From a virus: 64,000 nt of DNA. Shown here piece after piece: positions 9,989-32,799 of the stretch (positions are counted from its first letter, which is position 1; each line of letters opens with the position of its first letter). The position numbers and the translations under genes were made by a program. Under the pieces are notes generated by a model. That model saw nothing but the letters and a program-made list of their open reading frames with translations, was not told where the DNA came from and did no database searches. The DNA lies in the IMG/VR virus record IMGVR_UViG_3300027280_000002, positions 47,330-111,329 of that record; one strand, 5' to 3'.

Positions 9989-12900
9989 ATGTTATCACCA
10001 AGACTAACGAATTGTAAAGAATGTGCAAACATTCCTGATTTACTTAGAAAAATAGATTGTAAATTAGCAGAGCTAGGAAACAACTTATACAACAATGTTG
10101 TATTTATGTTGAACAGACCTATTGCTGTTAGTCAGATTTCAGAACTGTTAGTATACAAACGTGTACTAACTTTTCGTTATTGTGATACACATTATGCATC
10201 AGGATGTCCGGAGGTAAGTACAGAAGATATTGCAAGCAAGGTTATTCGTCTTACTGCTGGTTGTGTTTCATTATGTAATGAACCTACAGTGTGTGAGATT
10301 ACAACATGTGCTATAATTCCTTGTCCTAATCCAACAACAACAACTACAAGTACCTCTAGTACCAGCACTACTACAACCACTAGCACCACAGCAACACCAA
10401 CCACCACCACTACTACAACGATAACCCCAGATTGTAGAATAGAAGGATGCTTTGATATTATAGCTTTATCTACTACAACTACTTCAACATCTTCAACATC
10501 TTCGACTACTACTACTAGTACAACTGTTGTACCGTTTGATTGTGCAGAGCCATTTAACTTAAGTTCTCCTGAAGCCTTTCCTAATGCTATCACTGGAAAT
10601 GGAACTAAAGTATTGAGTAATGGAGTTTTGCTAACTACATCGTATACTCCAAATACGTTTAACCAACCTCCTATCTATGTAGCTGGCGTCCCAGGCACAA
10701 CAGAAGTATGTAATGGAGCATATGTAACTTCTCAGTCTGGTGGACAAGGAACATTGTCAATGCGTGGAGGTTCAACTGTTGTAATGGACTTTAATCCTCC
10801 AATAAATGCTATAGCGCTTGTCACTCAGGGTTATGGTTCTAGTAAAGATCCATCAGCGCAAGAGACTGTGGTTATAACATCTACTGATGTAATTGTTGCT
10901 ACTGAATTAACAGCATGTGGTGACTATGCAACAACACAAATAAGTCAAAATGAAATTAATTTAACTGGATCACAAGCTCTTTATCCAAACTATTCTGCAG
11001 GAGTTACAGCAATTTCACCAATTAGTGGAGGTATAAGTCAATTACAAATTACAATTAACCCACCTGCTGATGCATTAGCTGGTATTGGTTTTGATTTTTA
11101 TGTATGTCCTGGCAGTAGTCCAATAACTACGACAACAACTAGCACGTCTAGTACAACTACTACTACAACAAGTAGTTCAACTAGTACAACTACTAGTACG
11201 ACTACAATTGTACCAACAACAACTACAACTACAACAATTGCTGCATGTGTGGATTGTATTCCTAGTGATGTAACAATTGGAACACAAACCTGGAGTAAGT
11301 GTAATTTAAATGTTGATACATATTTAAATGGTGATCCAATTCCAGAAGTAACAGACCCAAGTGCTTGGGTAGGATTAACTACAGGAGCTTGGTGTTACCA
11401 TAGCAATGATTCTGCAAATGAACCAACTTATGGAAAATTATATAATTGGTTTGCTGTTAATGATCCAAGAGGGTTAGCTCCTGCAGGTTATCATATTCCA
11501 ACTAATGATGAACTAATTACATTAATTAATTATATTGACCCAGCTTCATCAGGAGGTGCAACTGTACCAAATAATGCAGGAGGTCCATTAAAAGAAGTAC
11601 AATTCTGTCATTGGGATGCACCTAATACTGCAGCAACAAATAGTTCAGGTTTCACAGGTCTTCCAGGAGGTTTTCGTGAGCCTCTCTCTGGGGTGTTTGG
11701 TGGTATTAATGAGGGTGGTACATGGTGGAGTAGTACAGACGAGATAGTAGGGCCTGATGCTTTTGCTTTTAGTTTATACAATAATCAGACTTGGGCGTAT
11801 AGAAATGACTGGAATCAAAATCACGGTTATTCAGTTCGTCTAATAAAAGATACAGGAACTACAACAACCACCACTTTAGCACCAACAACCACTACAACTA
11901 GTACATCTAGTACATCAACTACAACTAGTACAACAACTGTTGCTCCTACTACAACTAGTACAACAACTGTTGCTCCTACTACCACTACTACAACTACAGT
12001 GGTGGCACCAACAACAACTACAACCACAACGGTAACACCTACTACAACTACAACAACAACTATTACACCACTAGTTGGATGTCTAGAGTTTGACTATTTA
12101 AGTCTTATAGTTAGTAGCGATTGGATTCTAGATCCACCTACTGACTCTCTATTTGCTCGAGCAGATTATTTTACAGGACCAACTACAAACACAACAAGTT
12201 ATACCAACTGGTCTCAAGTTCCAAATACCAACTATGATGTAGTATTTAATATAGGAGGAGTAGACTATACAGCAGTGTATCAATTTATCAATGTTGGAAC
12301 TGGAGGAGTTACTGTTCCTTATGGTAAATTTAGTGTTAACAGTGTCAACTTCTCAGCTATGTCTACATTCCAATTTTCAAAGATAGATGCAAATGGTAAT
12401 GACTTATCATCAATACTTTCTACCTTTGATCATACAACTGGAGATGGTTATAAAGTTACTGCATATGGAGATTGTACAACACCAACAACAACAACTACAA
12501 CCACTGTAGCTCCAACAACAACAACTACAACCACCTTACCTGTTTTCCTTTGTACAGATCCACTACTAACAGTATCTTTACCTGATGGAATTGTAGGAGA
12601 TCCACTGAATGGAAGTGTTGTATATGATGGACTCAATCTAGCTATAACTGGTTACACTTATGGTGGGGGTAATACAACTGTATATATTGCTGGAACAGTT
12701 GCTTATACGCTTGCATTTATTGTTCCTTCAGGATATAGTAACTCAGGATCTGCTACTGGTTGCGCTGTTGCAGCAACTGGTACAACACCAACAACTACAA
12801 CTACAACAACTGTTGCTCCTACTACTACAACTACAACCACTAGTGCAAAAAGCTACGATATTAATTGGCAAGTTGATGGAGGAGGAAATGGATTTAAAGA

Positions 12901-13591
12901 AGCAGAATTACAATTATTTAAAAATGGAGCGAGTGTAGTAACTCAAGTTATTACTAATGGCACGCCTTCGGTACAAGGATTGTTTTCAAGTTCTAACGGT
13001 GATGTTATTAATGCTAAACTTACTACTAAGAACTTAACAAGTGAAGAGACTCAAGTGCAGAATAGTTTTTCATTGATAGGAGCAGGAGGTGGAGGTCTGC
13101 AAGAATTAGATACAGGTATACTACAACCACCTGCTGGTGGAGTCACAAATTCACTTGCGACTAGTTTTAGTACTGGATATACTCAACCTGGTGTTACTAA
13201 TGGTCCTTTATTATTATTTAAAGTAAATCAAGAACAAATAGCATCATCTGAAATTACTATGTCGCTTACTAATAACGGTGCTAATTTTAACTTTGAAATA
13301 GAAGATAATGATCAGCCAGGTGATCCTGTAGTATTGAGTATACCAACAACTGGTCCACTTTGGAATGGTAATTATTATTATGACTTCTTAGTTGGTAGAG
13401 AATATACAGTTACATTTCCATATTCAAACAACGAAGTTGGAGGTGTATCTACTGAACTAGTTATAAGCGGTGGTGGAATGACACCATTTAGCGATCAGGT
13501 GGATAATCCTTCTGGTTCAGTAAACACTATAACCCATACATTTACAGTATTAAATGCTACATCAATAGTAATTGAAGCATTTGAATATTAA
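9989..13591 (+). CDS. Modular Thr-linker fibre/adhesin: Cys-rich hub-like N-domain, beta domains, FISUMP (Fib_succ_major) domain, Ig-like domains
   Basis: 1200 aa with several poly-Thr tracts. FISUMP signature at ~11270-11851 (VTIGTQTW..CNL, YGKLYNW, P.GYHIPT, NSSGFTGLPGG, WWSST, GYSVRLIKD). Confidence 0.75.
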   Translation: MLSPRLTNCKECANIPDLLRKIDCKLAELGNNLYNNVVFMLNRPIAVSQISELLVYKRVLTFRYCDTHYASGCPEVSTEDIASKVIRLTAGCVSLCNEPTVCEITTCAIIPCPNPTTTTTSTSSTSTTTTTSTTATPTTTTTTTITPDCRIEGCFDIIALSTTTTSTSSTSSTTTTSTTVVPFDCAEPFNLSSPEAFPNAITGNGTKVLSNGVLLTTSYTPNTFNQPPIYVAGVPGTTEVCNGAYVTSQSGGQGTLSMRGGSTVVMDFNPPINAIALVTQGYGSSKDPSAQETVVITSTDVIVATELTACGDYATTQISQNEINLTGSQALYPNYSAGVTAISPISGGISQLQITINPPADALAGIGFDFYVCPGSSPITTTTTSTSSTTTTTTSSSTSTTTSTTTIVPTTTTTTTIAACVDCIPSDVTIGTQTWSKCNLNVDTYLNGDPIPEVTDPSAWVGLTTGAWCYHSNDSANEPTYGKLYNWFAVNDPRGLAPAGYHIPTNDELITLINYIDPASSGGATVPNNAGGPLKEVQFCHWDAPNTAATNSSGFTGLPGGFREPLSGVFGGINEGGTWWSSTDEIVGPDAFAFSLYNNQTWAYRNDWNQNHGYSVRLIKDTGTTTTTTLAPTTTTTSTSSTSTTTSTTTVAPTTTSTTTVAPTTTTTTTVVAPTTTTTTTVTPTTTTTTTITPLVGCLEFDYLSLIVSSDWILDPPTDSLFARADYFTGPTTNTTSYTNWSQVPNTNYDVVFNIGGVDYTAVYQFINVGTGGVTVPYGKFSVNSVNFSAMSTFQFSKIDANGNDLSSILSTFDHTTGDGYKVTAYGDCTTPTTTTTTTVAPTTTTTTTLPVFLCTDPLLTVSLPDGIVGDPLNGSVVYDGLNLAITGYTYGGGNTTVYIAGTVAYTLAFIVPSGYSNSGSATGCAVAATGTTPTTTTTTTVAPTTTTTTTSAKSYDINWQVDGGGNGFKEAELQLFKNGASVVTQVITNGTPSVQGLFSSSNGDVINAKLTTKNLTSEETQVQNSFSLIGAGGGGLQELDTGILQPPAGGVTNSLATSFSTGYTQPGVTNGPLLLFKVNQEQIASSEITMSLTNNGANFNFEIEDNDQPGDPVVLSIPTTGPLWNGNYYYDFLVGREYTVTFPYSNNEVGGVSTELVISGGGMTPFSDQVDNPSGSVNTITHTFTVLNATSIVIEAFEY
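11921..11980 (+). repeat. Perfect 30-bp tandem duplication in a Thr linker
   Basis: ACAACTAGTACAACAACTGTTGCTCCTACT twice; part of the unit recurs near 12804. Confidence 0.9.
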
Positions 13592-13613
13592 TAACAAATA
13601 AAATAAAAAAATT

Positions 13614-14696
13614 ATGTCAACACAAAATTGCTCAAATTGTTATAACGGATGCACTGAAATTACTTCAGACAGATGTGTTAAATATACAGGAGTAGATGTT
13701 CCTATTTTAGGAATACAGACTGGGGACTCTCTATCTTTTGTAGAGCAGGCTATTATAACTTTCTTAAGTTCTACAATTGATGGAACAGGAGTATTTCCTA
13801 TAATACAACCAACTGATATATGTCCAATCGTAGAAGCTAACTTGCCAGTATGTGATCCGCTTTCTTTAAACAATTATCTTACAGGTATAGTTCAAACTAT
13901 CTGTAACTTAAATGAACAAATACAACTTATAGAAGAAAGTGAACCAACCAGTGCATATGAGGTAGGATGTGTGTCAGGAGTAACAGATAACACTTCTACT
14001 CAAGATGTTTTACAACAAACTATAGTAAAGTTATGTGAAGTTGAGCAATCACTAAATACTTTCATTACAGATGTTACTACTAACTATGTAAGAATCGTTG
14101 ATATAAATACATATATAGATAACTATTTTAACACTAACCCTACACAACAATTAATAAATAATAGAATGGTTCCATTCTCTGCTCAACCTTATTTTGGAGA
14201 CTTGTCTCCATTTAGTCAGTCAGGAGCTGGTATAGGCGTTTGGGATAGAATCTTTTTATGTAATGGGCAAAATGGAACACCTGATCTTAGAGGAAGAGTA
14301 CCAGTTGGTACTACTAGTGGAATGGGAGGAGCTTCGTTAGATTCTGCAGTTGACCCTAATGTAGCTGGAAACCCAACATATAATCTTAATACTCCTGTTG
14401 GAACTAACAGTGTTACATTAGGTATTACACAAATACCTTCACATACACATACAATTACCATTGGACCATCAACGCCTACAATAACCCCTACAGGAAAGGC
14501 AGCAGGACCTTACGTTGGTAATAATATTGGTGGAGGATTTAAAGGTGGGGATAATGACTTTAAAATGAGATCGTTTGTAGCAGATCCCCTTCCACCGCAT
14601 TCACATTCTGCTACAATAAATCCGACAGGTGGAGGATTATCACATGATAATTTTCAACCTGGCCTTGGATCATATTATATAATTTACATACCTTAA
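13614..14696 (+). CDS. Tail fibre with phage tail collar domain
   Basis: 360 aa, LCNGQNGTPDLRGRVPVG collar motif, HTH/HSH metal-binding tip motifs, SHDNFQP..YYIIY end; N-terminal CVKYTG module plus coiled coil. Confidence 0.8.
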   Translation: MSTQNCSNCYNGCTEITSDRCVKYTGVDVPILGIQTGDSLSFVEQAIITFLSSTIDGTGVFPIIQPTDICPIVEANLPVCDPLSLNNYLTGIVQTICNLNEQIQLIEESEPTSAYEVGCVSGVTDNTSTQDVLQQTIVKLCEVEQSLNTFITDVTTNYVRIVDINTYIDNYFNTNPTQQLINNRMVPFSAQPYFGDLSPFSQSGAGIGVWDRIFLCNGQNGTPDLRGRVPVGTTSGMGGASLDSAVDPNVAGNPTYNLNTPVGTNSVTLGITQIPSHTHTITIGPSTPTITPTGKAAGPYVGNNIGGGFKGGDNDFKMRSFVADPLPPHSHSATINPTGGGLSHDNFQPGLGSYYIIYIP

Positions 14697-14708
14697 AATA
14701 AAAACAAA

Positions 14709-15020
14709 ATGGCATACTTACCTGTAAATCCTTGTTGCACAGATGTAGTTTCAAACACTCCTTGTGGATGTTCAAGCACTACAAGCAATAATCCTTGTGC
14801 AACTGGGGTACATTATTCAAAGTCTATTACATACAATGGACCTGTATTACCTTGTTCAAATGTGCAACCTTGTGATGATTTAAACATTGCTTTGTCTAAA
14901 ATTGACGCAATTATTTGTACATTGGTAAACCAACAAGCAATCAATACATCTGAAATTGCTACTATAAAGCAGCAAGTAATAAGTATAAATCAAACATTAA
15001 CAACTTGTTGTGACTCATAA
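14709..15020 (+). CDS. Small Cys-rich coiled-coil structural protein
   Basis: 103 aa with ITYNGPVLPC module and heptad C-terminus; coupled to the next gene by TAATG. Confidence 0.7.
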   Translation: MAYLPVNPCCTDVVSNTPCGCSSTTSNNPCATGVHYSKSITYNGPVLPCSNVQPCDDLNIALSKIDAIICTLVNQQAINTSEIATIKQQVISINQTLTTCCDS

Positions 15021-15268
15021 TGGAAGCAATCTTAACACTAAATACAGCAGGAAATAATACTGGATCTTTTAATCTGTTTTCAGACGTAGATGGATTTAGT
15101 GTTGCTTTTCAAACAAATGTAACTAAAACCCAGTTATTGAATGGGTATACAGCTGTGATGCCTGATTACACTACTATAGTAAAAGTAGCATCAGGTTCAG
15201 TTTGTAAAAATAGTATTGAGATAACACTAGAACAAACAACCACAACAACCACCACAATAACACCGTAG
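15020..15268 (+). CDS. Stand-alone GPF-module protein with Thr tail
   Basis: 82 aa; aligns by eye with the N-termini of 15273, 19407, 20515, 20772 and 31927. Confidence 0.75.
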   Translation: MEAILTLNTAGNNTGSFNLFSDVDGFSVAFQTNVTKTQLLNGYTAVMPDYTTIVKVASGSVCKNSIEITLEQTTTTTTTITP

Positions 15269-15272
15269 GACA

Positions 15273-18038
15273 ATGACAATACTTATAACATTAACTTTAG
15301 CAGGCATAGATACAGGTCCATTTGATCTATATTCTGATGCAGATAATTATCAAAATGCATTTGAGACTAATGTTTCCAGACAAGATCTATTGAATGGTTA
15401 CACTTCTAATAATGCCCCTGTTGGAACTACTACTGTTAGGTTAGATAGTACAAATCAGACTTGCGGTTCAGTGGATATATATTCTTGTGTTAGACCAAAT
15501 TGTGATTTTACAGGAGAGATAATTTGTGATATTACAACAACTACAACCAGTACATCTTCATCTTCAACTACAACTACTACTACTACATCAAGTGGACCTG
15601 GACCAATTACTTCACTATGTCTTTGGTCAACTCTTAACGAAGGAACCTCCGGAGAACTAGGAGTATATAATATAGACACCAATGTAGTAACTACAGTATT
15701 AGTTCCTAATGACTTTTTAGTAACCCAAGGTGTAACTAGACCTATATGTAGTACACAAAATAAACTTTGGTTAGCTAGTGAAACAGACCTTACCCAGAAC
15801 AACTTTATAATTAGAGAATATGATGTAACTTTTACATCAGGTAATGTAGGTTTATCTTTTACAAGAGACATTACTGTTAGCACACAAGGTATCCTATCAT
15901 ACCCTGGTTATTCTAGAGTTGGTTCTGAATGTACGGCACTAACTGCTATTAATGATACAAGTATAATAATAGTTTTTGGTGGACCAACTGCTACTGTTAT
16001 TTCACCAGATGTATGGGGTTTTACTATTGATATAAGTCAAACAGGTAATATTGCTAAAAATCTAACATCTAGTATTGGAAGAACTGTTAAACCTGTAATA
16101 AATACCTATGGTAAGGTTGTTTCAAACCCTAGACTACTATATCTTAATAACGGTGATGTTATTACTAGTATGAGGATGGATGGCGAAGTTGATGGTCCTT
16201 ATAATGGGAATTATCTACAACAATACAACATTTCAAATAATGATCGTATAACTGGAACTATGAAGTTGCAGGATTTAGGCATTCCAGAATTTACCGTTAA
16301 TTACACTTCTGAGAAATATATAGATATATTCTCAATAAATAGTAAATTATATGCTCTTCAACCAGAATTAAATAGAGTATATGAAATATCACAAACTCCT
16401 GACTACCAACAACAATCATCAAATCTTGTAGGTACAAATGTAAAAAGTTTATCTACAACTAGTGGTTGTGCAGATATTACCCTTTATGCAGAACCAGAAT
16501 GTGAATCTACTACAATACCTAATATGTACGACCAAGCAGGAGATGTGTACATAGGTCCAGTACCGTTTACGTATGCAGGTGTGACTGTTATGGCTAGTAG
16601 TACACTTGCTGCTGGATCTAACGGAATTGTTGGTACTGGTGGAGGGGTGACACTATATAAGTTGTGCGCTTATACTGGACTAGTTATAGCCTATGACTTT
16701 GTTGTTCAAGGGTCCGTATTTGAAATTATACTAACGTTTGCTCAACCTGTAAATAATATTCCAATAACAGCTGCAGTACTAAATACCGTATTAACTGAAG
16801 AAGGTGAATTTAGTAATGGAGACATTTATCAAGTAGATACAAATACAGAAACTCCAACTCTTTCAATATCGACAGGTTATGGAGTTAAGGTTATTGGTAA
16901 CCAGTTTGGAGGAATAGATTATTATAATAATGACAATAATGGAGAGTTTATTGTAACTTGTGAAACTGACTATACTATATTAACTTTATCAGGACAAGCT
17001 CCTACTGGTGGACCAGTTGGATTAGGATGTACTGTACCACCTCTAAATTGTAATAGAATATTTAGTGAACCTAGTCAAGGAAGAGACTGTGTTCCTGGAG
17101 TGTGTGCTCCTCAAAACAACTGGCCATCTTCAGGTCCTGAATATAAAAAGCTCTACTCACACAATGTTGCAACAGGAGTTTTAGAAGAAATACCATACCC
17201 AGCAGCAAGCGCTTTCACGACTCCTAACAGTGATGTTAGTGAAACTTATTTAATAAATCAACTACTGTTAACAAATGCAGAAAGTCTTACAACAAGTTTT
17301 AGATTTGCAAGATATAGATATAATGAGTCATCAACTGGGGTACCTCAAAACCTTGATTGGGACGGCATAGTTTATGAAATAGATAAAAATGATTTACCTG
17401 GTGTATTTAGTAATTTTATATATGGACTAAGTGCAATTAATGATGATGTAATAAGTCTTAATTACCAACGCACTACTGCAGGTGGTGGTGGTCACATGGT
17501 GGTTGAAGCACAATTTGTACCAGGATCTACAACATTAGCAATAACTGAAAAATTTACAATACCTGAGCCATTTAATGGAGGTAGTGAGAGTGTAGTAACT
17601 CTTAACGAAGATGGAACACCAAATAAATTTATAGCTTTACGATCAAACGAACCTGTGATAATTTCACAATTTGATTATGCTACAGGTAATTTTGAAGGTG
17701 ATGTTGAATTATCTGCTCCAGGAAACCCTGAAAACTATAGAACTGGAGGAGACATGTGTGTAATTGGTGACTTCTTATATATTTCTATAAAAGATTTACC
17801 TAATAATAACACTGACTTATGGAAGGTTAGTTTCGATACACTAGAATGGAGCATTGCAGAGTCTGATGATAGTTATAATGGTGGAAGTTCAGGAAGTAAA
17901 CCAAGCTGTAGAATAAGTAATGGATTTACATCATTTGATCCACCGCCATCTACTACAACTACTAGTACAACAACAGGGCTGCCAGCAGGAGTAAAAACAA
18001 TATGGACTACATTTTCAGCCTACACATCCCCAATATAA
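15273..18038 (+). CDS. GPF-module adhesin with Thr linkers and two putative beta-propeller-like heads
   Basis: 921 aa; N-terminal GPFDLYSD module; internal repeat ALTAINDTSIII / GLSAINDDVISL. Confidence 0.7.
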   Translation: MTILITLTLAGIDTGPFDLYSDADNYQNAFETNVSRQDLLNGYTSNNAPVGTTTVRLDSTNQTCGSVDIYSCVRPNCDFTGEIICDITTTTTSTSSSSTTTTTTTSSGPGPITSLCLWSTLNEGTSGELGVYNIDTNVVTTVLVPNDFLVTQGVTRPICSTQNKLWLASETDLTQNNFIIREYDVTFTSGNVGLSFTRDITVSTQGILSYPGYSRVGSECTALTAINDTSIIIVFGGPTATVISPDVWGFTIDISQTGNIAKNLTSSIGRTVKPVINTYGKVVSNPRLLYLNNGDVITSMRMDGEVDGPYNGNYLQQYNISNNDRITGTMKLQDLGIPEFTVNYTSEKYIDIFSINSKLYALQPELNRVYEISQTPDYQQQSSNLVGTNVKSLSTTSGCADITLYAEPECESTTIPNMYDQAGDVYIGPVPFTYAGVTVMASSTLAAGSNGIVGTGGGVTLYKLCAYTGLVIAYDFVVQGSVFEIILTFAQPVNNIPITAAVLNTVLTEEGEFSNGDIYQVDTNTETPTLSISTGYGVKVIGNQFGGIDYYNNDNNGEFIVTCETDYTILTLSGQAPTGGPVGLGCTVPPLNCNRIFSEPSQGRDCVPGVCAPQNNWPSSGPEYKKLYSHNVATGVLEEIPYPAASAFTTPNSDVSETYLINQLLLTNAESLTTSFRFARYRYNESSTGVPQNLDWDGIVYEIDKNDLPGVFSNFIYGLSAINDDVISLNYQRTTAGGGGHMVVEAQFVPGSTTLAITEKFTIPEPFNGGSESVVTLNEDGTPNKFIALRSNEPVIISQFDYATGNFEGDVELSAPGNPENYRTGGDMCVIGDFLYISIKDLPNNNTDLWKVSFDTLEWSIAESDDSYNGGSSGSKPSCRISNGFTSFDPPPSTTTTSTTTGLPAGVKTIWTTFSAYTSPI

Positions 18039-18045: not shown

Positions 18046-19395
18046 ATGGAAGGAAAAATAACAAAAGAAGTATCAAAAAAGATTAAGGAATTAGCTATTC
18101 AATATCCTCAAGCAGTTTCTATTGGTTTGGGTAAAAAAATAACTAATGGAGTTGATACTGGAGAATTTGCTATAGTTATATCTATACCAAAAAAGAAGAA
18201 ACTTTCTGAACTTACATCTTCTGAAATAATAGTTGATAATGTAACTATAGAAAATGAAGGAGTGGTAAAAGTAGATATTATAGAAGAAACTATTATACAA
18301 CATTTAGGATGTGACGCATTTTGTGGTAACACAGCAGCAGGTTCAAATAATGCAGCTAATAGAGCAACCAATCAACTGATGCAAGGAGGTATTTCCTTCT
18401 CTAGCAGAAATAATACAAAAACTGTAGGAACATTAGGAGGAATGGTAAAACATGTAGAAACTGGTACAACCGTAGGTTTAACTAATAATCATGTATCAAT
18501 AAATGATGCTTTTTACACTTCAGATAGAGACATAAATAATCAATACTTAAATGATGCATTTCCAGTTAATCGTGTGTATCAAAATGGAGAAAATGGTCCT
18601 AACACTCCTGTTAGTAATAATATGGGAGTTAGTCTAAGGTATGTACCTATTCATAAAAAAAGTACAGGTATATGGAATCAAGTAGATGCAGCTATCTGTT
18701 CTATAGTTGAATCTAGATTTAATATAAATACTGCTTGGAATCAAATAGGGTTAGAATCTATATTAGGTAGTACTGCTCCACCTTTTGCTAGTACAGCTGA
18801 ATTAGATTTATTATTAACTATCAATCCTCGTGTATATAGTTCTGGAAGAACAACTGGACCAAAAGGATTAATGCCTGAATGTCCTATGACAATATCAGCA
18901 GTTGATGCACTTGTTACCAGTATAGGATACCAAATGCAGAATCCTACACAAGCAAACTTAGCAGATGCTCAGAATAGTCCTTATTATGTAGTCTGTCAAT
19001 TTGATAGAGCTATTAAGTTTGTAAAACCAAATAACGATACACCTGACAGTACAGTTCCAGGATGTATAAATCCTATATTTAGTGGAGATTCTGGATCTTT
19101 TCTTTTAGCAGAATTAAATGGGACTATTAAAATAATAGGACTTTGTTATGCAGGAAGTTCAAATAGTCAAGGTCAAGTAACCACAGGAATCGCCTGTAGG
19201 ATAGATGATGTAGTACAACAATTAGGAATAGCTGCATATGATCCAGATGATGTATTAGCTGGAAGATTAGCTGACCCTGACAGTATAATATATATTACAG
19301 AACCAGGAACAAGTGATGATAAAATAAGATCTTGTAATTCCAAAACATACTGGCAAGCAGGTTTTACAGATACATTAGAAAATCAATGCGTATAA
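18046..19395 (+). CDS. Trypsin/chymotrypsin-fold (Nal1-like) serine protease
   Basis: 449 aa with GTLG, LTNNHV (His ~18490), VDAA (Asp ~18685), GRTTG and GDSGS (Ser ~19090), plus an N-terminal pro-domain-like segment. Confidence 0.85.
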   Translation: MEGKITKEVSKKIKELAIQYPQAVSIGLGKKITNGVDTGEFAIVISIPKKKKLSELTSSEIIVDNVTIENEGVVKVDIIEETIIQHLGCDAFCGNTAAGSNNAANRATNQLMQGGISFSSRNNTKTVGTLGGMVKHVETGTTVGLTNNHVSINDAFYTSDRDINNQYLNDAFPVNRVYQNGENGPNTPVSNNMGVSLRYVPIHKKSTGIWNQVDAAICSIVESRFNINTAWNQIGLESILGSTAPPFASTAELDLLLTINPRVYSSGRTTGPKGLMPECPMTISAVDALVTSIGYQMQNPTQANLADAQNSPYYVVCQFDRAIKFVKPNNDTPDSTVPGCINPIFSGDSGSFLLAELNGTIKIIGLCYAGSSNSQGQVTTGIACRIDDVVQQLGIAAYDPDDVLAGRLADPDSIIYITEPGTSDDKIRSCNSKTYWQAGFTDTLENQCV

Positions 19396-19406: not shown

Positions 19407-20495
19407 ATGTTAATACAAATAAATATAACAATTCCTCCAACTGGCAGTGCTGGACCATTTGATTTATTTTCAGATGCAAATGCATACAGTTCTCCATTTC
19501 AAACACAAGTTCCAGCTACTGCTTTAGAAAATGGCTATGTGGTAACACTTCCTATAGGTGCAACTATTATTAGAGTGTGTTCTGTTGGTACGTGTGAAAA
19601 CTGTATTGACTTACCAACTAATTGTCCAACTACAACTACAACATCTACTAGTTCAACAACAACAACTACAAGTACAAGTAGTACAACTACAACAACTACC
19701 ACTGCACCTCCGCCATATGAATTTAACTTTGAGTTATATACACAAACTCCAGGTTATATAGGAACTGTAAATTTAGTAATAAATGTAGATGGTTCTCCTG
19801 TAACAAATACAACAATAACTAGTGGGGCTGATTTTGCATCTGGAACTATCAATGTACTAGAAGGTCAAGTTGTAACCGCAACTATTACTAACTCTAATGT
19901 AGGAACTTGGGATCTACGAAATATAGTTAGCAAAGACGGTAGCGCTTATCAACCTGAAGATGCTTGTGATGATTGTAATCAATTAATTACACCACTTTTT
20001 TCTTCATATACAATGGAGCCATTTAATACACTTTTTCAATTTGGAGGAAATATAATTGTTCCAACAACAACTACAACAACAAGTACAAGCACAAGTACAA
20101 GTACAAGTACAACAAGTACGACAAGTACAACTACTACTATAGCGTGTTGTTTAAACGGTCCAGTTGCAGTAATTGTTCCACTTACTACCACCACTACAAC
20201 TTCCTCAGGAGGCTTTCTTGAGCCAGCTCAGATTTCATCACAAGGTGCAAACAGTAGCGGTGCAGCATGTGGTTTAAATATAAATACTAATATATGGGCA
20301 AGAACTGAAATTACAGGAGTAATTTCGCCAGGTGATTCCTTGTGGAATAATCCAACTGGAACTAGTCCTTATGTTGGAAATGATAACTTTAGACGTTTAA
20401 AACTAACAGAAAGCATAAGTGCTCAATCCGAAAAAGGAGTATATCTACCTGAAGGAGATAATGTGATCCAATCACCTTTCTCAATATGTTCATAA
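19407..20495 (+). CDS. GPF-module adhesin with Thr linkers, Ig-like domain and Cys-containing tip domain
   Basis: 362 aa; AGPFDLFSD module and three Thr tracts. Confidence 0.7.
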   Translation: MLIQINITIPPTGSAGPFDLFSDANAYSSPFQTQVPATALENGYVVTLPIGATIIRVCSVGTCENCIDLPTNCPTTTTTSTSSTTTTTSTSSTTTTTTTAPPPYEFNFELYTQTPGYIGTVNLVINVDGSPVTNTTITSGADFASGTINVLEGQVVTATITNSNVGTWDLRNIVSKDGSAYQPEDACDDCNQLITPLFSSYTMEPFNTLFQFGGNIIVPTTTTTTSTSTSTSTSTTSTTSTTTTIACCLNGPVAVIVPLTTTTTTSSGGFLEPAQISSQGANSSGAACGLNINTNIWARTEITGVISPGDSLWNNPTGTSPYVGNDNFRRLKLTESISAQSEKGVYLPEGDNVIQSPFSICS

Positions 20496-20766: not shown

Positions 20767-20771
20767 TAATT

Positions 20772-25226: not shown

Positions 25227-25231
25227 TACAC

Positions 25232-28200
25232 ATGGCTACTAAAAAAGAAATTGAAGACGATAAGAAGAAGAAGGCAGCTTCTAAGGCAAAAACTGATAAA
25301 GCTCAACAAGGTCAAGTAAGACTAGAGTTTAATCAGGCAATGTCTGGCTTAAATATGGATAGCACAATTAACCAAGTAGCGACAGGTAGTCTTACTTATG
25401 CGTTAAATGCAACTGTAGAAAACTTTGACTCTAGTTCTGTTAATTATCAAAATGAACCTGGTAACGAACCTTGTTTTAGTTTTCCTGATGGTTATGAACT
25501 TATTGGAAAACATACTATTCCTGAAAAAGACAAAGACATATTCTTTTTAACTAACCCCACTACTGGAGGTAGTGAAATTGGATTCATGTTTAATAATGAT
25601 TGTCAATATAAAACGCTAATCAATGCTCCATGTTTAAACTTTAATGTAGATCATCCTATACCAAAAGTCGTACATAGAATAACAAACTGTACTACAGAAA
25701 TATATTGGACCGATGGATTTAATGCTAGAAGATATTTGGATATAGAAAACATTCCTTATATACTTGCACCAGGAACAACTCCTACTTGTGATCCTGTAGA
25801 AACAGATCAACTAGACTGTAATCAACTTAAGATACAACCTGACTTTCCAATACCATTTTTAAATGTAGATGAGGTGACTAATGTAGGATCATTAGTTGCT
25901 GGAACCTACCAATTTGCTATACAGTATTCTGATGCAGTAGGTAATGATTTAACGTCATACTACTCAATAACCAACCCATGTCCAATAGCTGATGCACTTA
26001 TAACAACAGTAAATTTTAACTATCCAGTAGGAAAATCTATAGTTGTAAAAATATCTAACTTAGATATCTCAGGACAATTTAATTACTTTAATTTAGCAGT
26101 AATTAAAACTATAAATAATATTTCCTCTGTTGAATTAGTAGGGACATATAACATTACAGACGTTAGTGAAGAAATAACATATACAGGTGCAGATCAAACA
26201 GCCAAAAGATTATCTATGTCTGATATATTTGAGAAATATCCGTATTATGACATAGCACAAGATATAACATCTGTACAAGATATTCTAGTATGGGATAATT
26301 TAACTTCTATAGATAGGATAAATTATCAGCAGATAGCTAGTAACATAACTTTGAAGTGGGAATCTTATAGGATACCTCCTGGTGAAAATTATTCTGATGA
26401 GAATAATGCTACTAATTTACGTGGATACATGCGTGATGAAGTTTATGCATTTGAGATAGTGTTCCTTCTTAAGAATGGAAAACAAACTGATTCTTTTCAC
26501 ATTCCAGGACCTCCTAACCTTAATATAAATCCTGATGTACCTGACACAAATGATGACTTTATTGGTGATCCAGATTATGTTGAGAATGGTATAGGGTATA
26601 GCTCATATTGGAAGATATATAACAACGCTATTAATTTAGGAGCTTCTCCAACTGCTACAAGTGCTGACGATTACAAAGGACCATGGGAATATGGAGAATT
26701 TGCATATTGGGAATCAACAGAAAAATACCCTTGTAATACAGATGTATGGGGAGACTTAGCTGATCAACCAATCAGACATCATAAATTTCCAGATGTATTG
26801 GTTAGTCCTATTATAGAAAATAGCACAATCACTTATGATGGTAATAACATTGTTCCTACAATGCAGGATGATGCAGTTTTTCCTATTGGAGTAAAAATTA
26901 ACAATAGTCAAATCTCAGGTCTGATACTAACCTCTGATCTAACACAAGACCAAAAAGATGATATTGTAGGGTTTAAGATTGTTAGAGGAGATCGTAGTAC
27001 TAACAGGTCAGTAATAGCTAAGGGTATACTCAGAAACATGGGCAAGTATTCAAGAAATGATCAAGAGTACTATTACCCTAATTATCCCTATAATCAAGTT
27101 TCTGGAGAAGACTCTTTTCTTCAAGAAAACAATAATGCATGGAATTATAAATCTAAAGCATGGCTCGTATATATGCCAGATCAAGAAACAACAAGTTTAT
27201 TTGATTGGGGTTCTCTTAATTTTGGTAGTGTAGATATAGATGTTAATGTTGAAGAAGGTGTATTTACATATACAAGTATTGTTAATGGTAGAAATACACA
27301 AGCTAAGATTCTACCTAATTGTATTATAGAAGTATGTTCTCTTACACGACCTGTAGCACTTAGGGGTCTTATGACTGTAGGTCCTGCAGATTTTGATGCA
27401 TGGCGTGGATTTCATGGGCAAAAAGTGTTTGCTGCAGGATATGCAATTAAATCAGAAAATCCTTTTAATAACTTTAATTTTGATGGTACAGTAGCTTCTA
27501 GACGATGGTTGGATTATCAAGGTTCATTAACTTCAGGAGGTGGTGATACGTGTACTGTTCTTACCAATGTGGATTATGATTATGATTATGATAATTTATA
27601 TGGACAGGTTACTGAAAGTGGAGATGGTCATATATGGAAACCTCAAGTTTCAGGAGCTAATTCTGGCTTATCAATTCCAAGAATAAATTTAAATGGTATT
27701 ATTCCTGGTCCTTGTTTTGAAAGTGATGACATTTCTACTGAAGAAATAGAAGATGACGCATTAATAACATATCCTCCAGGTACATTTGATCCAGCTAACG
27801 AATGTCCAGAAGGACAAAGTGCAGCTTGTCAAGAATGTATAAAAACAGAAAATCCAGATAACATAACTCCTTGGCCACAAGCTGCTTTTGGGCAGCCTAC
27901 AAATCCCCTTCCTCAACTTAGTAACGGTGTCCCATCACAATCTTTTCCGCTTCCAACAAATCAAACAAATACATTTACTCCAGCAGTTGATGTAAATCAA
28001 ATGGACGGATCTATAAATGGGACAACTTCAAGATGGAGTAGAAGATCATGTTTAGCATGTGATAGAGATATACCTATTAAACCATTAGAGGGAGCAGAAT
28101 ATGATTCAGTAAAAGATATTTTAGAAAAACAAATATTTAATTCTCCTGACACGTCTTTTGGACAACCTTTCTTAGGTAGTGTATTAAAACTAGAGAGTGT

Positions 28201-31200
28201 AATGTTTGGGGCAGGTAAAGGTCATTTTGTAGAAGTTAAAGATAATGCCAAATACAAACTTTTATCTAAAGAAGCTCAAGAAGATGCACTTAGGAGTTCA
28301 GAAAGAATAGCTAGCATAGGTTCTGGTGGATTTAATGCTGGTATAATGTTTACAGTTTATCAGTCCTATCTTACTATATATATAAATGGAATAACAAGAA
28401 AGAACTATGGAATGTCTTTCAATTCACGAGCAAACTATGACTACTCTTACCCTATTGATAATAATGTTAAAGGTGGCATCAAACAGAGAGAAATAGAACT
28501 TACAAGATATTTAATACCAGGAGTACAATCATTTAATAATAATGATTTGCCTATAAATAACTGGAATAGAGAATCATCTGTATATATAAAAACAAAAATT
28601 AATGATGACATATTAGCTTTTCCTCTTCCACAAGATACGCCTAGTTTAACATCACCTGATGGTACATCTAGCATGGTTGAGTTCTCTAGATTTAACATAA
28701 GTGAAATTGGAGCATGTGATGCACCAGAGAAAGAAAAGGACATGAAGGTGGTTTCATATTATGCTTCTATGAAAAACATTTTACCTAATCAATGGGGACA
28801 AATAAATTCATTCAAAAGAATTGATACTGGATATCAAAAAGGCATAGCTTCCTCAGGAGAGGATATTATATTTGGTGGAGATGTTTATATATCTAGATTT
28901 ACATTTAAAACTAAACTACCATTTTTTATAGACAATAGAGTAAATGCGCCTGATGATTCCGATATATTCTTTGATGAAATAGGCAACATTGCATATCCTA
29001 AATATTGGCACTCTGCTAGATCTATATTAAACGCTTATAGAGTTGAGGCTAATGATTCAAACATGCTTAACCTTATATCTACTAAAGCACATAATTTAGA
29101 TTGTCCAAGTGATCCTTCATTAATTACTGCACCATCAACTACTGCTCAACCTGTATCTACTTTTGCAGGGACATACAGATCATTCTATGATGGATTTATG
29201 TATTTATTTGCATACGGTGTACCAAACTTTTATTGTGAAAGTGTATACAATACAGACTTAAGGCAAGCTTTTAATACTAAAGAAGGTGACTTTTGGCCCC
29301 ATGTAAGCAGTAGTATTCCAGATGATTGGGTACAAGAAACAAACGTGCCTATTGCTCAAGATAATACTTATTACTATAATGTAACATTCTCTAAACAAAA
29401 TAAAGAGAATGTATTTACTCAACTCCCTCCAGATTGGGAAAATGATTTATGTTTTACATACTTTCCGTTTAGAGCTATTTATTCAGATACACAAGGAGAC
29501 AGTCCTGACAATAGAGTAAATAACTGGTTAGTGTATAGAGCTATTTCTTATCACGACTTTCCACAAAACTATGGTAATCTTACATCATTAGATGGTGTAC
29601 AAGATAAGGCTATCTTGGCAAGATTTGAGAACAAGGCATTGCTGTATAATAATTTATTAACTATTGATACAAGTAATCCTCAAGCAGCTTATGTAGGTAA
29701 CTCTAGACTTTTTGATGGGTCACCCCCATTAGATTTTGCTGAAACAGACTTAGGTTACGTAGGGTCACAACATAAGTTTCTACTTAAGGTCCCTTATGGT
29801 CAAATTACTGCAGACGCTAAGAGGGGACAAATCTTTTTATTAAATGGAAATAAACCTGTTGACATGACAGCTTATGGGTCAGGGGTGAATAGATTTATGA
29901 CAAGTAGTTTACCTTTTGAAATTTTAGAATACTTTCCAGAAGTAAATGTAGACAATAATTTTACAGGATTTGGATTACACGGTGTGTACGATAGTAAGTT
30001 TGACAGAGTGATTATTACAAAAATTGATTATATTCCTACAGACAGTTCGGTATTCTACGATAAAGATGATAAAAACTTTTATATACCAATAGAGGGTTAT
30101 ACTGATACTTCTGGTAATCAAACTATCAAACAAGAAGTATTCTTAAACGATAGAAAGTATTTCTGTAATAAGTCATGGACTATGTCATTTGATTTTAATA
30201 CAAAAAGCTGGATATCGTTTCATAGTTATTTACCAAACTTTTATATAGGAGAAAATAACTTTTACTATTCAGGGATTAACGGATGCTGTACAAACTTTAC
30301 TGCTATTCTTGATAATCCAAGTAGAAGTAAAATAGATACAGAGTCTCCTAATTTAGAGATGATAGTTGGAGAACTTGATGGCGTTGTTAAAATTACTACA
30401 ACAACCACCACTACAGGTCTTCCTTTATTTACCACTACTACTACAACAGCATATGTTCCTGATTGTGAGTTTGATATAAATGTAGTAAGTAAGTTAGATT
30501 GTCAAATGGAAGGAGTGGGTTACATTACTGTACCAACCCCTACTACTACAACAATATGTGCTAGACCTGATAGTTTAGTTATTTCTAATTTTACAGAAGG
30601 TTATCAAATTACAGGACAAGCTTCTCCAGTTTTAGGTACACTCTCTGCACAGAAAGCTTGCGCAGTGGGTAGTTTTGTAAGAGTAGCAAATCCTCTAGAA
30701 ACAGTAGATATAAATTTCCAATATCAATATGAATTTCCAAAACCAGTTACAGTGGGTCAGATTTTATATTTTGGAGGTGGTAGTGATTGCACATTTGTAC
30801 CAGATGGCTGGTACACTAGTAGTGAAGATGGTTGGAATAAAGCCTACTATGTTGAAAATTCAAGATTAGAAGAAATAATACCATGTGATTGTAATACACT
30901 TACCACAACAACCACTCTTTATGATGGGGAATTAACAGAATGCTGTGGTATTATATACAATGATGTAAATGGTAATGTAAAACTTTCAAACATAGCATCG
31001 TCTCACTCTGTAGATTCAGATAATTTTCACACTATAGTTATCCCAGGATACACTACTGGTAAGTTAGCTGTTGGCCCAACTGCTCTATACGGAGTTTCAC
31101 CAGGTATCAGTACATCATTTAAGAAATGGACAATTACAACAAGCCCATGGACTGTAGTAGCAGATTCAGATTTAGTAATAGCTGATAATGCATTTGGTAC

Positions 31201-31924
31201 AACTGCTGGAGTGGTAGTTAAAGATGACAGTGCAATTATTGCAATAGATACAGCTCAAGGATTTATAGTAGAAATAGATACAACAAGTGGAATTCCATCA
31301 CAGAAAATTCTAGTGGGAGGTGGTTATACATACACTACAAATCTATTATATACTACTAAAGGTAAACTAATAACAATAGGAGAAGATGGTGGAGGAGTGT
31401 TCCATTACTTCCAATGGGATTATGATAACGAAACAGTAACCCCAGAAATTGATATAACAATCACTGCACCTGAATTTGGTAGTGAGGTTGTAGCAATATA
31501 TGAATGTGATTGTGACATTACGATAATTACAAAAGAAGCTAATCAATATAATGTATTTAGCGTATCACCAATATCTCCTTATGGTGTTATATTTTCAGGA
31601 AATATAACAGATGATAATCGAAGCATTTGGAACTCTTTTGATGCTACTAACGTAACTCAAATGCAATCATGCGTTAATCCAATTGGAGGACAAGAGTTTA
31701 CAACAACTACAAGTACCACAGAAAGCCCAAGTACTACTACTACTACATCAATATACCCTTGTTATAAATGGGAGATAACAGGCCCTGTAGGAATTATTAT
31801 TACTGACTGTAATGGGCTACCTGAAGTACTAAGTGTTCCTAGTGGAGTGACACAACAATTTTGTACAAACGTTAATACTGGAGGACCTGCTGGAGCAACC
31901 TTTATAGGAAACTGTGATATATAA
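25232..31924 (+). CDS. Muzzle/tail stabilisation protein with large insertions and a Thr-linked C-terminal extension
   Basis: 2230 aa; GLNMD, NEPGN, IYWTDGFN, GYMRDEVYAFEIV, IRHHKFPD, FGGDVYISRF and SWTMSF...WISFHSYLP motifs typical of the crAss muzzle. Confidence 0.8.
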   Translation: MATKKEIEDDKKKKAASKAKTDKAQQGQVRLEFNQAMSGLNMDSTINQVATGSLTYALNATVENFDSSSVNYQNEPGNEPCFSFPDGYELIGKHTIPEKDKDIFFLTNPTTGGSEIGFMFNNDCQYKTLINAPCLNFNVDHPIPKVVHRITNCTTEIYWTDGFNARRYLDIENIPYILAPGTTPTCDPVETDQLDCNQLKIQPDFPIPFLNVDEVTNVGSLVAGTYQFAIQYSDAVGNDLTSYYSITNPCPIADALITTVNFNYPVGKSIVVKISNLDISGQFNYFNLAVIKTINNISSVELVGTYNITDVSEEITYTGADQTAKRLSMSDIFEKYPYYDIAQDITSVQDILVWDNLTSIDRINYQQIASNITLKWESYRIPPGENYSDENNATNLRGYMRDEVYAFEIVFLLKNGKQTDSFHIPGPPNLNINPDVPDTNDDFIGDPDYVENGIGYSSYWKIYNNAINLGASPTATSADDYKGPWEYGEFAYWESTEKYPCNTDVWGDLADQPIRHHKFPDVLVSPIIENSTITYDGNNIVPTMQDDAVFPIGVKINNSQISGLILTSDLTQDQKDDIVGFKIVRGDRSTNRSVIAKGILRNMGKYSRNDQEYYYPNYPYNQVSGEDSFLQENNNAWNYKSKAWLVYMPDQETTSLFDWGSLNFGSVDIDVNVEEGVFTYTSIVNGRNTQAKILPNCIIEVCSLTRPVALRGLMTVGPADFDAWRGFHGQKVFAAGYAIKSENPFNNFNFDGTVASRRWLDYQGSLTSGGGDTCTVLTNVDYDYDYDNLYGQVTESGDGHIWKPQVSGANSGLSIPRINLNGIIPGPCFESDDISTEEIEDDALITYPPGTFDPANECPEGQSAACQECIKTENPDNITPWPQAAFGQPTNPLPQLSNGVPSQSFPLPTNQTNTFTPAVDVNQMDGSINGTTSRWSRRSCLACDRDIPIKPLEGAEYDSVKDILEKQIFNSPDTSFGQPFLGSVLKLESVMFGAGKGHFVEVKDNAKYKLLSKEAQEDALRSSERIASIGSGGFNAGIMFTVYQSYLTIYINGITRKNYGMSFNSRANYDYSYPIDNNVKGGIKQREIELTRYLIPGVQSFNNNDLPINNWNRESSVYIKTKINDDILAFPLPQDTPSLTSPDGTSSMVEFSRFNISEIGACDAPEKEKDMKVVSYYASMKNILPNQWGQINSFKRIDTGYQKGIASSGEDIIFGGDVYISRFTFKTKLPFFIDNRVNAPDDSDIFFDEIGNIAYPKYWHSARSILNAYRVEANDSNMLNLISTKAHNLDCPSDPSLITAPSTTAQPVSTFAGTYRSFYDGFMYLFAYGVPNFYCESVYNTDLRQAFNTKEGDFWPHVSSSIPDDWVQETNVPIAQDNTYYYNVTFSKQNKENVFTQLPPDWENDLCFTYFPFRAIYSDTQGDSPDNRVNNWLVYRAISYHDFPQNYGNLTSLDGVQDKAILARFENKALLYNNLLTIDTSNPQAAYVGNSRLFDGSPPLDFAETDLGYVGSQHKFLLKVPYGQITADAKRGQIFLLNGNKPVDMTAYGSGVNRFMTSSLPFEILEYFPEVNVDNNFTGFGLHGVYDSKFDRVIITKIDYIPTDSSVFYDKDDKNFYIPIEGYTDTSGNQTIKQEVFLNDRKYFCNKSWTMSFDFNTKSWISFHSYLPNFYIGENNFYYSGINGCCTNFTAILDNPSRSKIDTESPNLEMIVGELDGVVKITTTTTTTGLPLFTTTTTTAYVPDCEFDINVVSKLDCQMEGVGYITVPTPTTTTICARPDSLVISNFTEGYQITGQASPVLGTLSAQKACAVGSFVRVANPLETVDINFQYQYEFPKPVTVGQILYFGGGSDCTFVPDGWYTSSEDGWNKAYYVENSRLEEIIPCDCNTLTTTTTLYDGELTECCGIIYNDVNGNVKLSNIASSHSVDSDNFHTIVIPGYTTGKLAVGPTALYGVSPGISTSFKKWTITTSPWTVVADSDLVIADNAFGTTAGVVVKDDSAIIAIDTAQGFIVEIDTTSGIPSQKILVGGGYTYTTNLLYTTKGKLITIGEDGGGVFHYFQWDYDNETVTPEIDITITAPEFGSEVVAIYECDCDITIITKEANQYNVFSVSPISPYGVIFSGNITDDNRSIWNSFDATNVTQMQSCVNPIGGQEFTTTTSTTESPSTTTTTSIYPCYKWEITGPVGIIITDCNGLPEVLSVPSGVTQQFCTNVNTGGPAGATFIGNCDI

Positions 31925-31926
31925 CT

Positions 31927-32799
31927 ATGGCAACTAAAATAATAAACTTAAAAATAACAAGCTCTAGTCCTCAAGTAGGACCTTTTGAGATTACGGATGA
32001 CTTATCAAATGTCCTAGGAACCGATGTGTCTTTAAGTAGCCTTATTGTGGGCATAAGCTATAGGGTAGATGTTTCAGTTTCAGTGATTACTTTAACCTCT
32101 TCAGGTGATTGTAATTTTGTAAAAGAATTTTCAGTTAGAGATTCAGTACCTAGTATAGAATATATAACAGCTACATATACTCAAATTAAAACAGGATGTG
32201 TATGGACACACTTAAGAAACGATACTTTATATAATTATTACTATGGAGATATAGCTCCTTACATAATCGAGTATCCTTTTTCATATAAGTATCATGATCA
32301 AATATTACAGAATATAAAAGACTATAGTAAAGTGTATGTATATCTTCCATCTACATTAGGGTCATTTGATTCTAATAGCAAGGTGCAAGTAGATGATAAA
32401 TATTTTAATAAAGCTATTCTATATAACGATCAACAATCTACAGGAGTAATAGAACTTGTTCCTAAACCAATGAATGATTTAAGTTCATATTTAAATTATC
32501 CTATACTTAATTCTAATAGTAAAACTATTACTTTTGCAAAGACAGATAGTTTCTATCAATATAACACTTTCTGGGCACTACAAAAAAATGATAAGATTCC
32601 TTTATTTAAAACATCTTGTGAATCTGGCTCAATAGATAAAGTAGTTAATCAAGATAATATGAACTATGGTGACTTATCATTTAAGAAGTCACAACTAAGA
32701 GCTAAAGATTTAAAGGTGAGACACATACTAGACAACTCTTCTATAACACATATAGTAAGTCAATTTATTGTAGCACCAGCACAAATATCATATAAGTAA
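31927..32799 (+). CDS. GPF module fused to a probable split-off muzzle C-terminal domain
   Basis: 290 aa; VGPFEITD...TSSGDC, then VWTHL..LYNYYYG..PYIIEY and FNKAILYNDQQSTG, recalled as the distal muzzle segment. Confidence 0.55.
   Translation: MATKIINLKITSSSPQVGPFEITDDLSNVLGTDVSLSSLIVGISYRVDVSVSVITLTSSGDCNFVKEFSVRDSVPSIEYITATYTQIKTGCVWTHLRNDTLYNYYYGDIAPYIIEYPFSYKYHDQILQNIKDYSKVYVYLPSTLGSFDSNSKVQVDDKYFNKAILYNDQQSTGVIELVPKPMNDLSSYLNYPILNSNSKTITFAKTDSFYQYNTFWALQKNDKIPLFKTSCESGSIDKVVNQDNMNYGDLSFKKSQLRAKDLKVRHILDNSSITHIVSQFIVAPAQISYK

Follow-up and report, generated by a model that had tools for sequence, protein, structure and literature searches.

A ~70-residue N-terminal module as a candidate virion anchor for exchangeable, Thr-tethered heads in marine crAss-like phages

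Six genes of the structural block share an N-terminal module

We analysed a 64,000-nucleotide stretch of phage DNA, hereafter the window, which is the right-hand 64 kb of a single contig of 111,329 bp and 33% GC (IMG/VR record IMGVR_UViG_3300027280_000002). The + strand of the window carries a phage structural block that includes portal, major capsid, tail-fibre and virion-structural matches to PHROGs, and six open reading frames (ORFs) of this block, designated by their start positions, begin with homologous domains of ~70 amino acids (aa) that we term GPF modules. An original prediction, made by reading the letters and translated ORFs, had proposed these six motif-bearing N-termini, and all six are present on the + strand:

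15020-15268, + strand: stand-alone module protein of 82 aa; module at residues 1-70, then a T7-ITP C-terminal tail; leave-one-out E 1e-18
15273-18038, + strand: module (residues 1-72) with a Cys-rich neck and a ~800-aa head (H2); leave-one-out E 9e-22
19407-20495, + strand: module (residues 1-72) with a head (H0); leave-one-out E 2e-17
20515-20766, + strand: stand-alone module protein of 83 aa; 'GPCDIY' subtype with a short N-terminal extension; leave-one-out E 1.5e-11
20772-21440, + strand: module (residues 1-76) fused directly to a 145-aa Cys-containing head (H3); leave-one-out E 1e-18
31927-32799, + strand: core protein 'H1' of 290 aa; divergent module (residues 1-72) and a 200-aa C-terminal domain; leave-one-out E 4e-3

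The six N-termini share an alignment of ~72 columns that follows the consensus GPF..[LI][FY]S.D...F.T.V....L..GY....P.GTT.[IV]R[VL].S...C. Leave-one-out hidden Markov model (HMM) tests searched the complete six-frame set of 734 ORFs from the 111-kb genome, and the omitted copy was always the best non-training match. Significant alignment of the copies, as anticipated, was obtained for five of them by this test (E 1e-11 to 1e-22), the signal of 31927 being weak by HMM and clear by hhalign, with which a profile of 61 orthologues of 31927 matched an 81-module profile built without it (97.5%, E 5.9e-12, 71 columns). The AlphaFold model of the 15020 module also matches an orthologue of 31927 encoded by Virus NIOZ-UU157 (Foldseek against BFVD, TMq 0.74). 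ORF 31927 is thus a true but distant homologue of the module. No seventh copy was found in the genome, and blastp comparisons among the tail proteins of the window (E≤1e-3, low-complexity filter) identified the GPF module as the only common part, with no common head or payload.

ORFs 15020 and 20515 consist of the module alone, as foreseen, and the single cysteine of 15020 is the conserved one. The poly-Thr tethers proposed for 15273 and 19407 correspond to Thr/Ser tracts directly behind the module (residues 88-107, DNA 15534-15593, and residues 75-99, DNA 19629-19703, respectively); two more Thr/Ser tracts divide the 19407 head. ORFs 20772 and 31927 have no such tract behind the module. The 20772 start is an ATG located within a listed TTG-initiated ORF (20730-21440).

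The module is modelled as a small β-sandwich

AlphaFold2 (AF2) folds the 15020 protein, using an 81-sequence alignment, into a small β-sandwich comprising 6 strands of three or more residues and one short helix, with a predicted local distance difference test (pLDDT) score of 81 and a predicted template modelling score of 0.68. For 31927, the model of the first 85 residues shows the elements in the same order (pLDDT 80-91). This correspondence, along with BFVD matches whose sole significant entries are five paralogues of Virus NIOZ-UU157, agrees with the expectation that the copies fold alike. Foldseek returned nothing from the PDB at E≤1e-3 for the module model. The best VIA-align superposition reached Z 5.7 (root-mean-square deviation 2.6 Å over 64 aligned residues) and many fibronectin type III (FN3) domains scored Z 5.0-5.6, a range that the tool calls a common arrangement. 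The models point to a fold of the FN3/immunoglobulin (Ig)-like class, with no significant specific match. The top VIA-align row (8gl8_D, Z 5.7) is a type IX secretion system sorting domain, an element that is C-terminal on secreted Bacteroidota proteins, and we rejected it as an identity for the module, which is strictly N-terminal and phage-encoded.

Module-bearing ORFs matched no Pfam family at E≤0.1 and no PHROG at E≤1e-3, and the module profile gave nothing significant against PDB sequences (best E 0.38). The Pfam families fn3, Big and I-set were matched neither by the module proteins (E≤0.1) nor by 70 head-bearing members, and known anchor families (T7 gp17 N-terminal, T4 gp10-like and others) gave no sequence match in the Pfam and PHROG searches. 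A known non-docking family, named in the original prediction as contrary evidence, was likewise absent from the Pfam, PHROG and PDB matches. Searching 50,697 GenBank phage records by tblastn with two modules yielded zero matches even at E≤1.

The module is strictly N-terminal and its heads are exchanged

When the six-copy profile was used to search 1.84 billion cluster representatives, it retrieved 1,755 protein clusters from metagenomes at E≤1e-3 and 1,231 at E≤1e-10. Among the 150 matches listed, proteins range from 78 to 894 aa in length and the module starts at residues 1-8 in 149, the one exception resembling a mis-called start. There is one module per protein: four proteins flagged with two stretches, which we considered as candidate tandem modules, each hold one module plus poly-Thr runs that account for the apparent second matches. 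We also collected 163 related-phage loci from IMG/VR, anchoring the searches on the capsid protein and on the conserved protein 23000, and detected 378 copies by HMM in 129 of them, all ORF-initial and all on the structural-gene strand. These include 142 module-only and 230 head-bearing copies, and the heads form 41 clusters, H0 being the commonest variable one. The strict N-terminal position and variable C-termini predicted for such a search were therefore recovered in the metagenomes and in the relatives alike. Close relatives of the capsid protein occur on more than 597 IMG/VR contigs (the best 80 are at least 90% identical), and all six module-carrying contigs of GTDB metagenome-assembled genomes prove to be phage contigs with conserved synteny, three having been binned with Bacteroidota.

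The presence of different heads on alike modules, another element of the original prediction, is evident from these loci. Modules at least 70% identical are borne by different head clusters, and one subtype (MTVLITLT.AG.DSGPFNLYSN...) carries at least nine unrelated heads, the junction always falling directly past the last module strand. Within accessory groups, sequence identity is higher for the module than for the head, the module/head values being 63/34% for H0, 72/44% for H2, 78/55% for H7 and 69/62% and 74/57% for two others, a hallmark of proteins that combine an anchor with a receptor-binding part (PMC6872550). Of the 230 headed proteins, 130 have a Thr/Ser stretch at least 6 residues long no further than 45 aa from the end of the module.

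Few heads have Pfam matches among the 70 head-bearing proteins scanned: we detected Fib_succ_major, Lcl_C, an Ice_binding-like domain (E 1e-48) and NHL/SGL/SBBP β-propellers, the last in one of the 70 proteins. The recognisable heads appear to be binding or adhesin-type domains; the remaining heads of this set have no recognisable family. The head of 15273 (a 921-aa protein) has weak FG-GAP/lactonase- and β-propeller-like structural neighbours in the ESM Atlas (TM≤0.36) and is possibly of β-propeller type.

Stand-alone modules are maintained genes

Stand-alone modules fall into four conserved subfamilies under purifying selection, with ratios of nonsynonymous to synonymous substitution rates (dN/dS) of 0.32-0.44 from codon alignments, which indicates that they are functional genes and not debris. 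We rejected their interpretation as decayed or mis-assembled fragments, given that their length and position are also conserved and that the next gene has its own module. As these proteins are nothing other than the module, any function common to the family must reside in the module. Exactly one cysteine, at a conserved position, is found in 72 of 110 stand-alone modules, and 8 of the 110 have none. Stand-alone and headed genes often form conserved adjacent pairs, a pairing that is not universal.

The 31927-type protein belongs to the conserved core

The 31927-type protein (~288 aa) is encoded directly 3' of the 2230-aa gene in nearly every relative and has 2,556 homologues, including Tara Oceans records. 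Its module is only 44% identical as compared to 72% for its C-terminal domain, the reverse of what is observed for accessory proteins. The proposal that 31927 is an interchangeable member of a kit does not survive this result: 31927 belongs to the near-universal core, and of its two halves the module is the one conserved less. The C-terminal domain (window 32128-32799, residues 68-290) has dozens of invariant columns, many of them aromatic and polar, and an ESM Atlas search with it returned only unnamed viral clusters. Its AF2 monomer model is unusable (pLDDT<50), a low score that is in keeping with folding that takes place only within an assembly.

Genomic surroundings of the module genes

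The module genes form a tightly packed block of one orientation, placed between tail-fibre-like genes and large virion protein genes. The neighbouring genes are as follows:

8076-9212, + strand: 378-aa conserved structural-module protein ending in a T7-AA tag
9989-13591, + strand: 1200-aa protein of the 'beads on a string' type, its N-terminal ~90 aa conserved and its domains set apart by 15 Thr/Ser tracts
13614-14696, + strand: tail-fibre-like protein (phrog_8763, phrog_8469, tail / tail fibre); homologue in 149 loci
14709-15020, + strand: 103-aa Cys-rich protein, immediately 5' of the first module gene
18046-19395, + strand: 449-aa protein inside the variable cluster, with a weak PHROG 'protease' match (phrog_20754, E 7e-13, residues 9-230)
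21611-22852: SbcD/Mre11-like DNA repair exonuclease (phrog_704, E 3e-52)
25232-31924, + strand: 2230-aa protein matching PHROG 'virion structural protein', with four Thr tracts in its C-terminal quarter

The portal matches phrog_6547 (E 3e-94) and is homologous to the portal gp20 of PhicrAss001 (PDB 7QOG, E 5.6e-31), the major capsid protein is assigned to phrog_11589, and the structural genes are followed by Cys-free ORFs of 839, 1191 and 898 aa and then by giant ORFs of 4302 and 1621 aa. The portal homology, the PHROG matches and the giant ORFs located after the structural genes justify labelling the genome, by gene content, as that of a crAss-like phage. The kinship appears distant, since neither the major capsid protein nor the 2230-aa protein has a PDB sequence match; the best GenBank phage match of the capsid protein is only 25% identical. 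ORF 25232 occupies a position that resembles that of the crAss muzzle gene, and 'muzzle' for 25232 and 'hub-like' for 9989 are candidate labels based on gene order and PHROG matches. They stay candidate labels, as do ring assignments, because PDB sequence searches with the major capsid protein, the 2230-aa protein, 31927, 8076, 23000 and 24222 provided no usable match to PhicrAss001.

In relatives, the accessory module copies make up a variable cluster of 0-5 genes upstream of the exonuclease gene. The exonuclease gene itself is conserved and lies mid-block, with the variable appendage cluster on one side and the conserved 23000-25226 genes on the other. Homologues of the 18046 protein are present in 57 of the 163 fetched loci, and a search anchored on this protein recovered near-identical loci only.

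Two other small domains of the block share the bare-or-extended organization of the GPF module. The N-terminal ~90 aa of 9989 (window 9989-10270) correspond in compact relatives to a stand-alone protein of 86-107 aa (L168:1759-2046, L171:3584-3853, L172:3227-3496) and are elsewhere extended through Thr tracts up to 1223 aa; with 111 homologues in the fetched loci, this region may be a second anchor-like module. In 9989 itself, a Fib_succ_major domain spans residues 428-620 (DNA 11270-11848). The 103-aa 14709 protein matches the N-terminus of a 312-aa Thr/Ser-linked protein of relative L168 (E 1e-6) and represents a ~100-aa family whose members are bare, have a poly-Thr tail or continue into a Thr/Ser-linked extension, always just 5' of GPF genes (L168:3163-3456, L168:3460-4395, L172:4682-4987); its comparison with the N-terminus of 13614 was not significant (E 1.1). 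Given that both domains exist bare or Thr-extended, the bare forms are likely to be basal small virion proteins onto which heads were grafted. Stand-alone GPF modules may similarly be the basal form of a small virion protein, and the occurrence of two further bare domains in the block argues against the suggestion that they act as caps, a role that, like that of adaptors, is speculative.

Thr tracts and glycosyltransferases

Thr tracts also extend other parts of the block, as originally noted for 9989, 25232 and the C-terminus of 8076, in which we count 15 tracts, four tracts and a T7-AA tag, respectively. Both ACA and ACT codons occur in the tracts, as they do throughout these genes. This mixture lends no support to tracts being slippage-prone perfect repeats, a possibility that we set aside, and we read them as maintained at the protein level; they might also provide microhomology for recombination. 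In four proteins the C-terminus is T7 plus two or three more residues (AA, AAP or ITP): 8076 (window 9183-9212), 15020 (window 15236-15268) and two encoded at G000:C1:8570-8746 and 9797-10018 of the genome. The two latter T7-tagged tiny peptides flank a 339-aa ORF (L164:8777-9796) without a Pfam match.

Upstream of the window, the phage encodes a 1164-aa methyltransferase-GT1/4-GT9 (heptosyltransferase-like) fusion (L164:3171-6665, - strand) and three adjacent GT2 proteins (L164:12062-14055, - strand). Glycos_transf_1, Glyco_transf_9 and two of the three Glycos_transf_2 matches exceed Pfam cut-offs, the third scoring 22.8 against 23.3 bits. These genes lie ~40-55 kb from the tract-bearing genes. 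The genome therefore encodes both phage glycosyltransferases and Ser/Thr-rich tracts on structural-block proteins, and the fusion and GT2 proteins are candidate enzymes for Thr-tract glycosylation.

A candidate virion anchor and its alternatives

The N-terminal position of the module, its conservation above the heads, the exchange of heads at a fixed junction, the linkers, the adhesin-like heads and the tail-fibre neighbourhood together constitute an anchor signature. We favour, with a probability of roughly 0.55, the interpretation that the ~70-aa GPF module is a common virion anchor bearing tethers and swappable adhesin heads in a marine crAss-like clade. Virion binding, the location of the binding site, glycosylation and adhesin function are each what we infer here; homology, the modelled fold class, N-terminal placement, the diversity and swapping of heads, relative conservation and the genomic setting come from the analysis itself. 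The N-terminal module of each protein would attach it to a conserved particle site, which gene position would favour placing on the tail, the capsid being possible too. The Thr/Ser-rich tether behind the module, possibly O-glycosylated by the phage's own glycosyltransferases, would present a C-terminal head, usually small and lectin-like or Cys-rich, which could make low-affinity contacts with polysaccharides of hosts or particles. Recombination just behind the module would trade heads between phages while the conserved module preserves compatibility with the particle. Head-less proteins would be conserved paralogues, probably of the basal form, that fill such sites without carrying cargo. The 31927-type protein is probably arranged differently, with a buried, conserved C-terminal domain and an exposed, faster-evolving module.

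Several points weigh against a common anchor. Folded Ig/FN3-like domains in other phages are usually exposed accessory adhesion domains and not anchors. The module is the less conserved half of the sole universal member of the family, which is ill-fitting for a plug on a conserved socket, and no socket for the module was identified. Some relatives possess only the 31927-type protein plus one stand-alone module, and in at least one full-length relative locus the 31927-type protein is the sole module carrier; the accessory system is therefore dispensable, which does not settle what the module originally did. Instead of the Thr tracts, the glycosyltransferases could modify DNA or host glycans.

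A more elaborate version of the anchor model, which we hold tentatively and consider doubtful in its full form, is combinatorial display: any GPF module could plug into a single conserved type of site, or into the module of the 31927-type protein, so that each particle would carry a mixed, genome-programmable array of mucin-like glycosylated tethers with different lectin-type heads. As part of the same tentative scheme, the lone conserved cysteine might lock the module in place and head-less modules might tune occupancy.

The reversed conservation of the 31927-type protein does not fit a simple plug and keeps two further explanations alive. The first, which we regard as unlikely, is homotypic assembly, in which modules bind each other and the 31927-type protein, fixed by its C-terminal domain, is the base on which stand-alone and headed modules stack or co-oligomerise into mixed appendages. 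It would account for the 31927-type protein being the sole universal carrier, with a conserved C-terminal domain that resists modelling as a monomer, as is typical of assembly-folded parts, and for the adjacent pairs of stand-alone and headed genes, the latter argument being tempered by the incomplete occurrence of the pairing. The single conserved-position cysteine of most stand-alone modules could form an intermolecular disulfide, and the tail hubs of crAss001 are disulfide-linked (PMC10172136), but the cysteine-free stand-alones would be left without such a bond. Accessory modules are moreover 63-78% conserved when the 31927-type module is 44% conserved in the same phages, which is unexpected for tight partners.

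The second explanation, in our view slightly less likely still, is that the module is an exposed Ig/FN3-like adhesion or spacer domain comparable to Hoc, attachment being mediated, if at all, by other parts of the proteins. Ig-like domains are reportedly widespread as accessory decorations of phage structural proteins, and the FN3/Ig-like fold class and the position of the module as the variable, probably exposed half of the 31927-type protein are in line with such a role. Yet stand-alone proteins are the module alone and heads are mutually unrelated, leaving no other common attachment part; strict N-terminal placement and conservation above the heads are atypical for promiscuous decorations, and Pfam Ig, Big and fn3 models do not match at E≤0.1.

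We consider it very unlikely that these are non-virion soluble late proteins, released upon lysis or intracellular (decoys or free binders of polysaccharides, for instance), whose module would act as a tag for folding, solubility or oligomerisation: the interspersed exonuclease (21611) and possible protease (18046) reveal a block that is not purely structural, but the genes are co-oriented, tightly packed and flanked by tail-fibre and large virion protein genes, the Thr-linked design recurs on the structural-block neighbours 9989, 25232 and 8076, and the proteins have no signal peptide, the module beginning at residues 1-3.

Relationship to known attachment systems

Klebsiella and E. coli phage receptor-binding proteins (RBPs; KP32, KP34, PhiK64-1 and CBA120/Ackermannviridae types) possess an N-terminal anchor and horizontally exchanged C-terminal domains (Latka et al. 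2019, PMC6872550). The anchor fixes the protein to the particle or to another RBP, and a genome may encode up to 11 RBPs (PMC6872550). The GPF proteins resemble them in having an N-terminal structural domain that is present on several proteins and conserved above an exchanged C-terminal part, with the exception of the 31927-type protein (44/72%). They differ in that the module has no sequence relationship to RBP anchors and is a ~70-aa, monomer-sized β-sandwich, whereas those anchors are T7 gp17-like or T4 gp10-like trimeric domains. The heads also differ, being small, lectin-like or Cys-rich and mounted on flexible Thr/Ser tethers here, as opposed to rigid trimeric depolymerase β-helices, and head-less stand-alone anchors are conserved genes in the present phages.

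In PhicrAss001, a member of the same virus group by portal homology, the head fibres gp21 and gp29 and the tail fibre gp22 dock by N-terminal residues 1-38, 1-58 and 1-26, respectively (Bayfield et al. 2023, PMC10172136). The docking places are capsid hexon pockets or tail hubs, and flexible C-terminal domains, one of them Ig-like, project outward (PMC10172136). The authors suggest that uncharacterised proteins may fill fibre roles in other crassviruses (PMC10172136). The GPF module has no detectable sequence or fold match to gp21, gp29 or gp22. The crAss001 anchors are short extended segments, whereas the module is an autonomous domain common to many paralogues; Thr-rich linkers and combinatorial sets of heads are not described in that phage.

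Phage Ig-like and FN3-like domains such as T4 Hoc are small β-sandwiches found on structural-module proteins and are associated with weak carbohydrate adhesion. These domains are usually internal or C-terminal add-ons that match Pfam Ig, Big or fn3 models, whereas the GPF module is strictly N-terminal, matches no such model and is the conserved part of its proteins. For the tethers, mycobacteriophage virions are reportedly O-glycosylated through Ser/Thr-rich tails, to our knowledge the sole documented precedent of this kind. As in that system, phage glycosyltransferases co-occur with Thr-rich tracts or C-terminal tags on structural-block proteins; unlike the mycobacteriophage tails, the tracts described here are mostly internal linkers of 7-27 residues that separate domains.

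The likeness to cohesin-dockerin pairs that had been drawn for the module holds as a conceptual analogy only, the common idea being that modular proteins with Thr/Pro-rich linkers are plugged into a scaffold by one small domain. A dockerin is helical and binds Ca, and a cohesin is a jelly roll of ~150 aa; the GPF module is neither, according to its sequence and fold match lists. No cellulosome-like scaffold protein with repeated sockets was found.

The statement that nothing like this had been described was too strong as a concept, N-terminal anchors being known (PMC6872550; PMC10172136). The design principle of an N-terminal anchor with exchangeable C-terminal heads is already established; its parts are new. 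The GPF family of domains was previously undescribed, as were its extent, the stand-alone members and the small heads on Thr tethers, and our literature search found no paper on the appendages of this phage clade.

The phage is uncultured; its clade is very abundant in marine metagenomes, and the appendage proteins are entirely without annotation. The module labels ~1,750 protein clusters as probable virion appendages and marks the start of variable, presumably ligand-binding heads, and may serve as a handle for predicting host range and for mining new carbohydrate-binding domains. It also bears on how non-gut crAss-like phages attach to hosts or particles. Should docking prove true, the autonomous 70-aa anchor and the flexible linker that naturally follows it would provide a compact model of adhesin exchange, and the virions would offer a further case of Thr-tract glycosylation. 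Combinatorial display, if true, would be the cellulosome principle realised in a phage, and a plug-in scaffold of natural origin.

Further features of the window

GC content rises to 43% at window 60001-64000, against ~33% elsewhere, within an open-ended ORF (59943-63998, >1352 aa). The block from 8076 to 32799 is Cys-rich, with 40 cysteines in ORF 25232, 25 in ORF 9989 and 10 in the 103-aa ORF 14709, and the 839-aa ORF 32799, which comes next after it, has zero.

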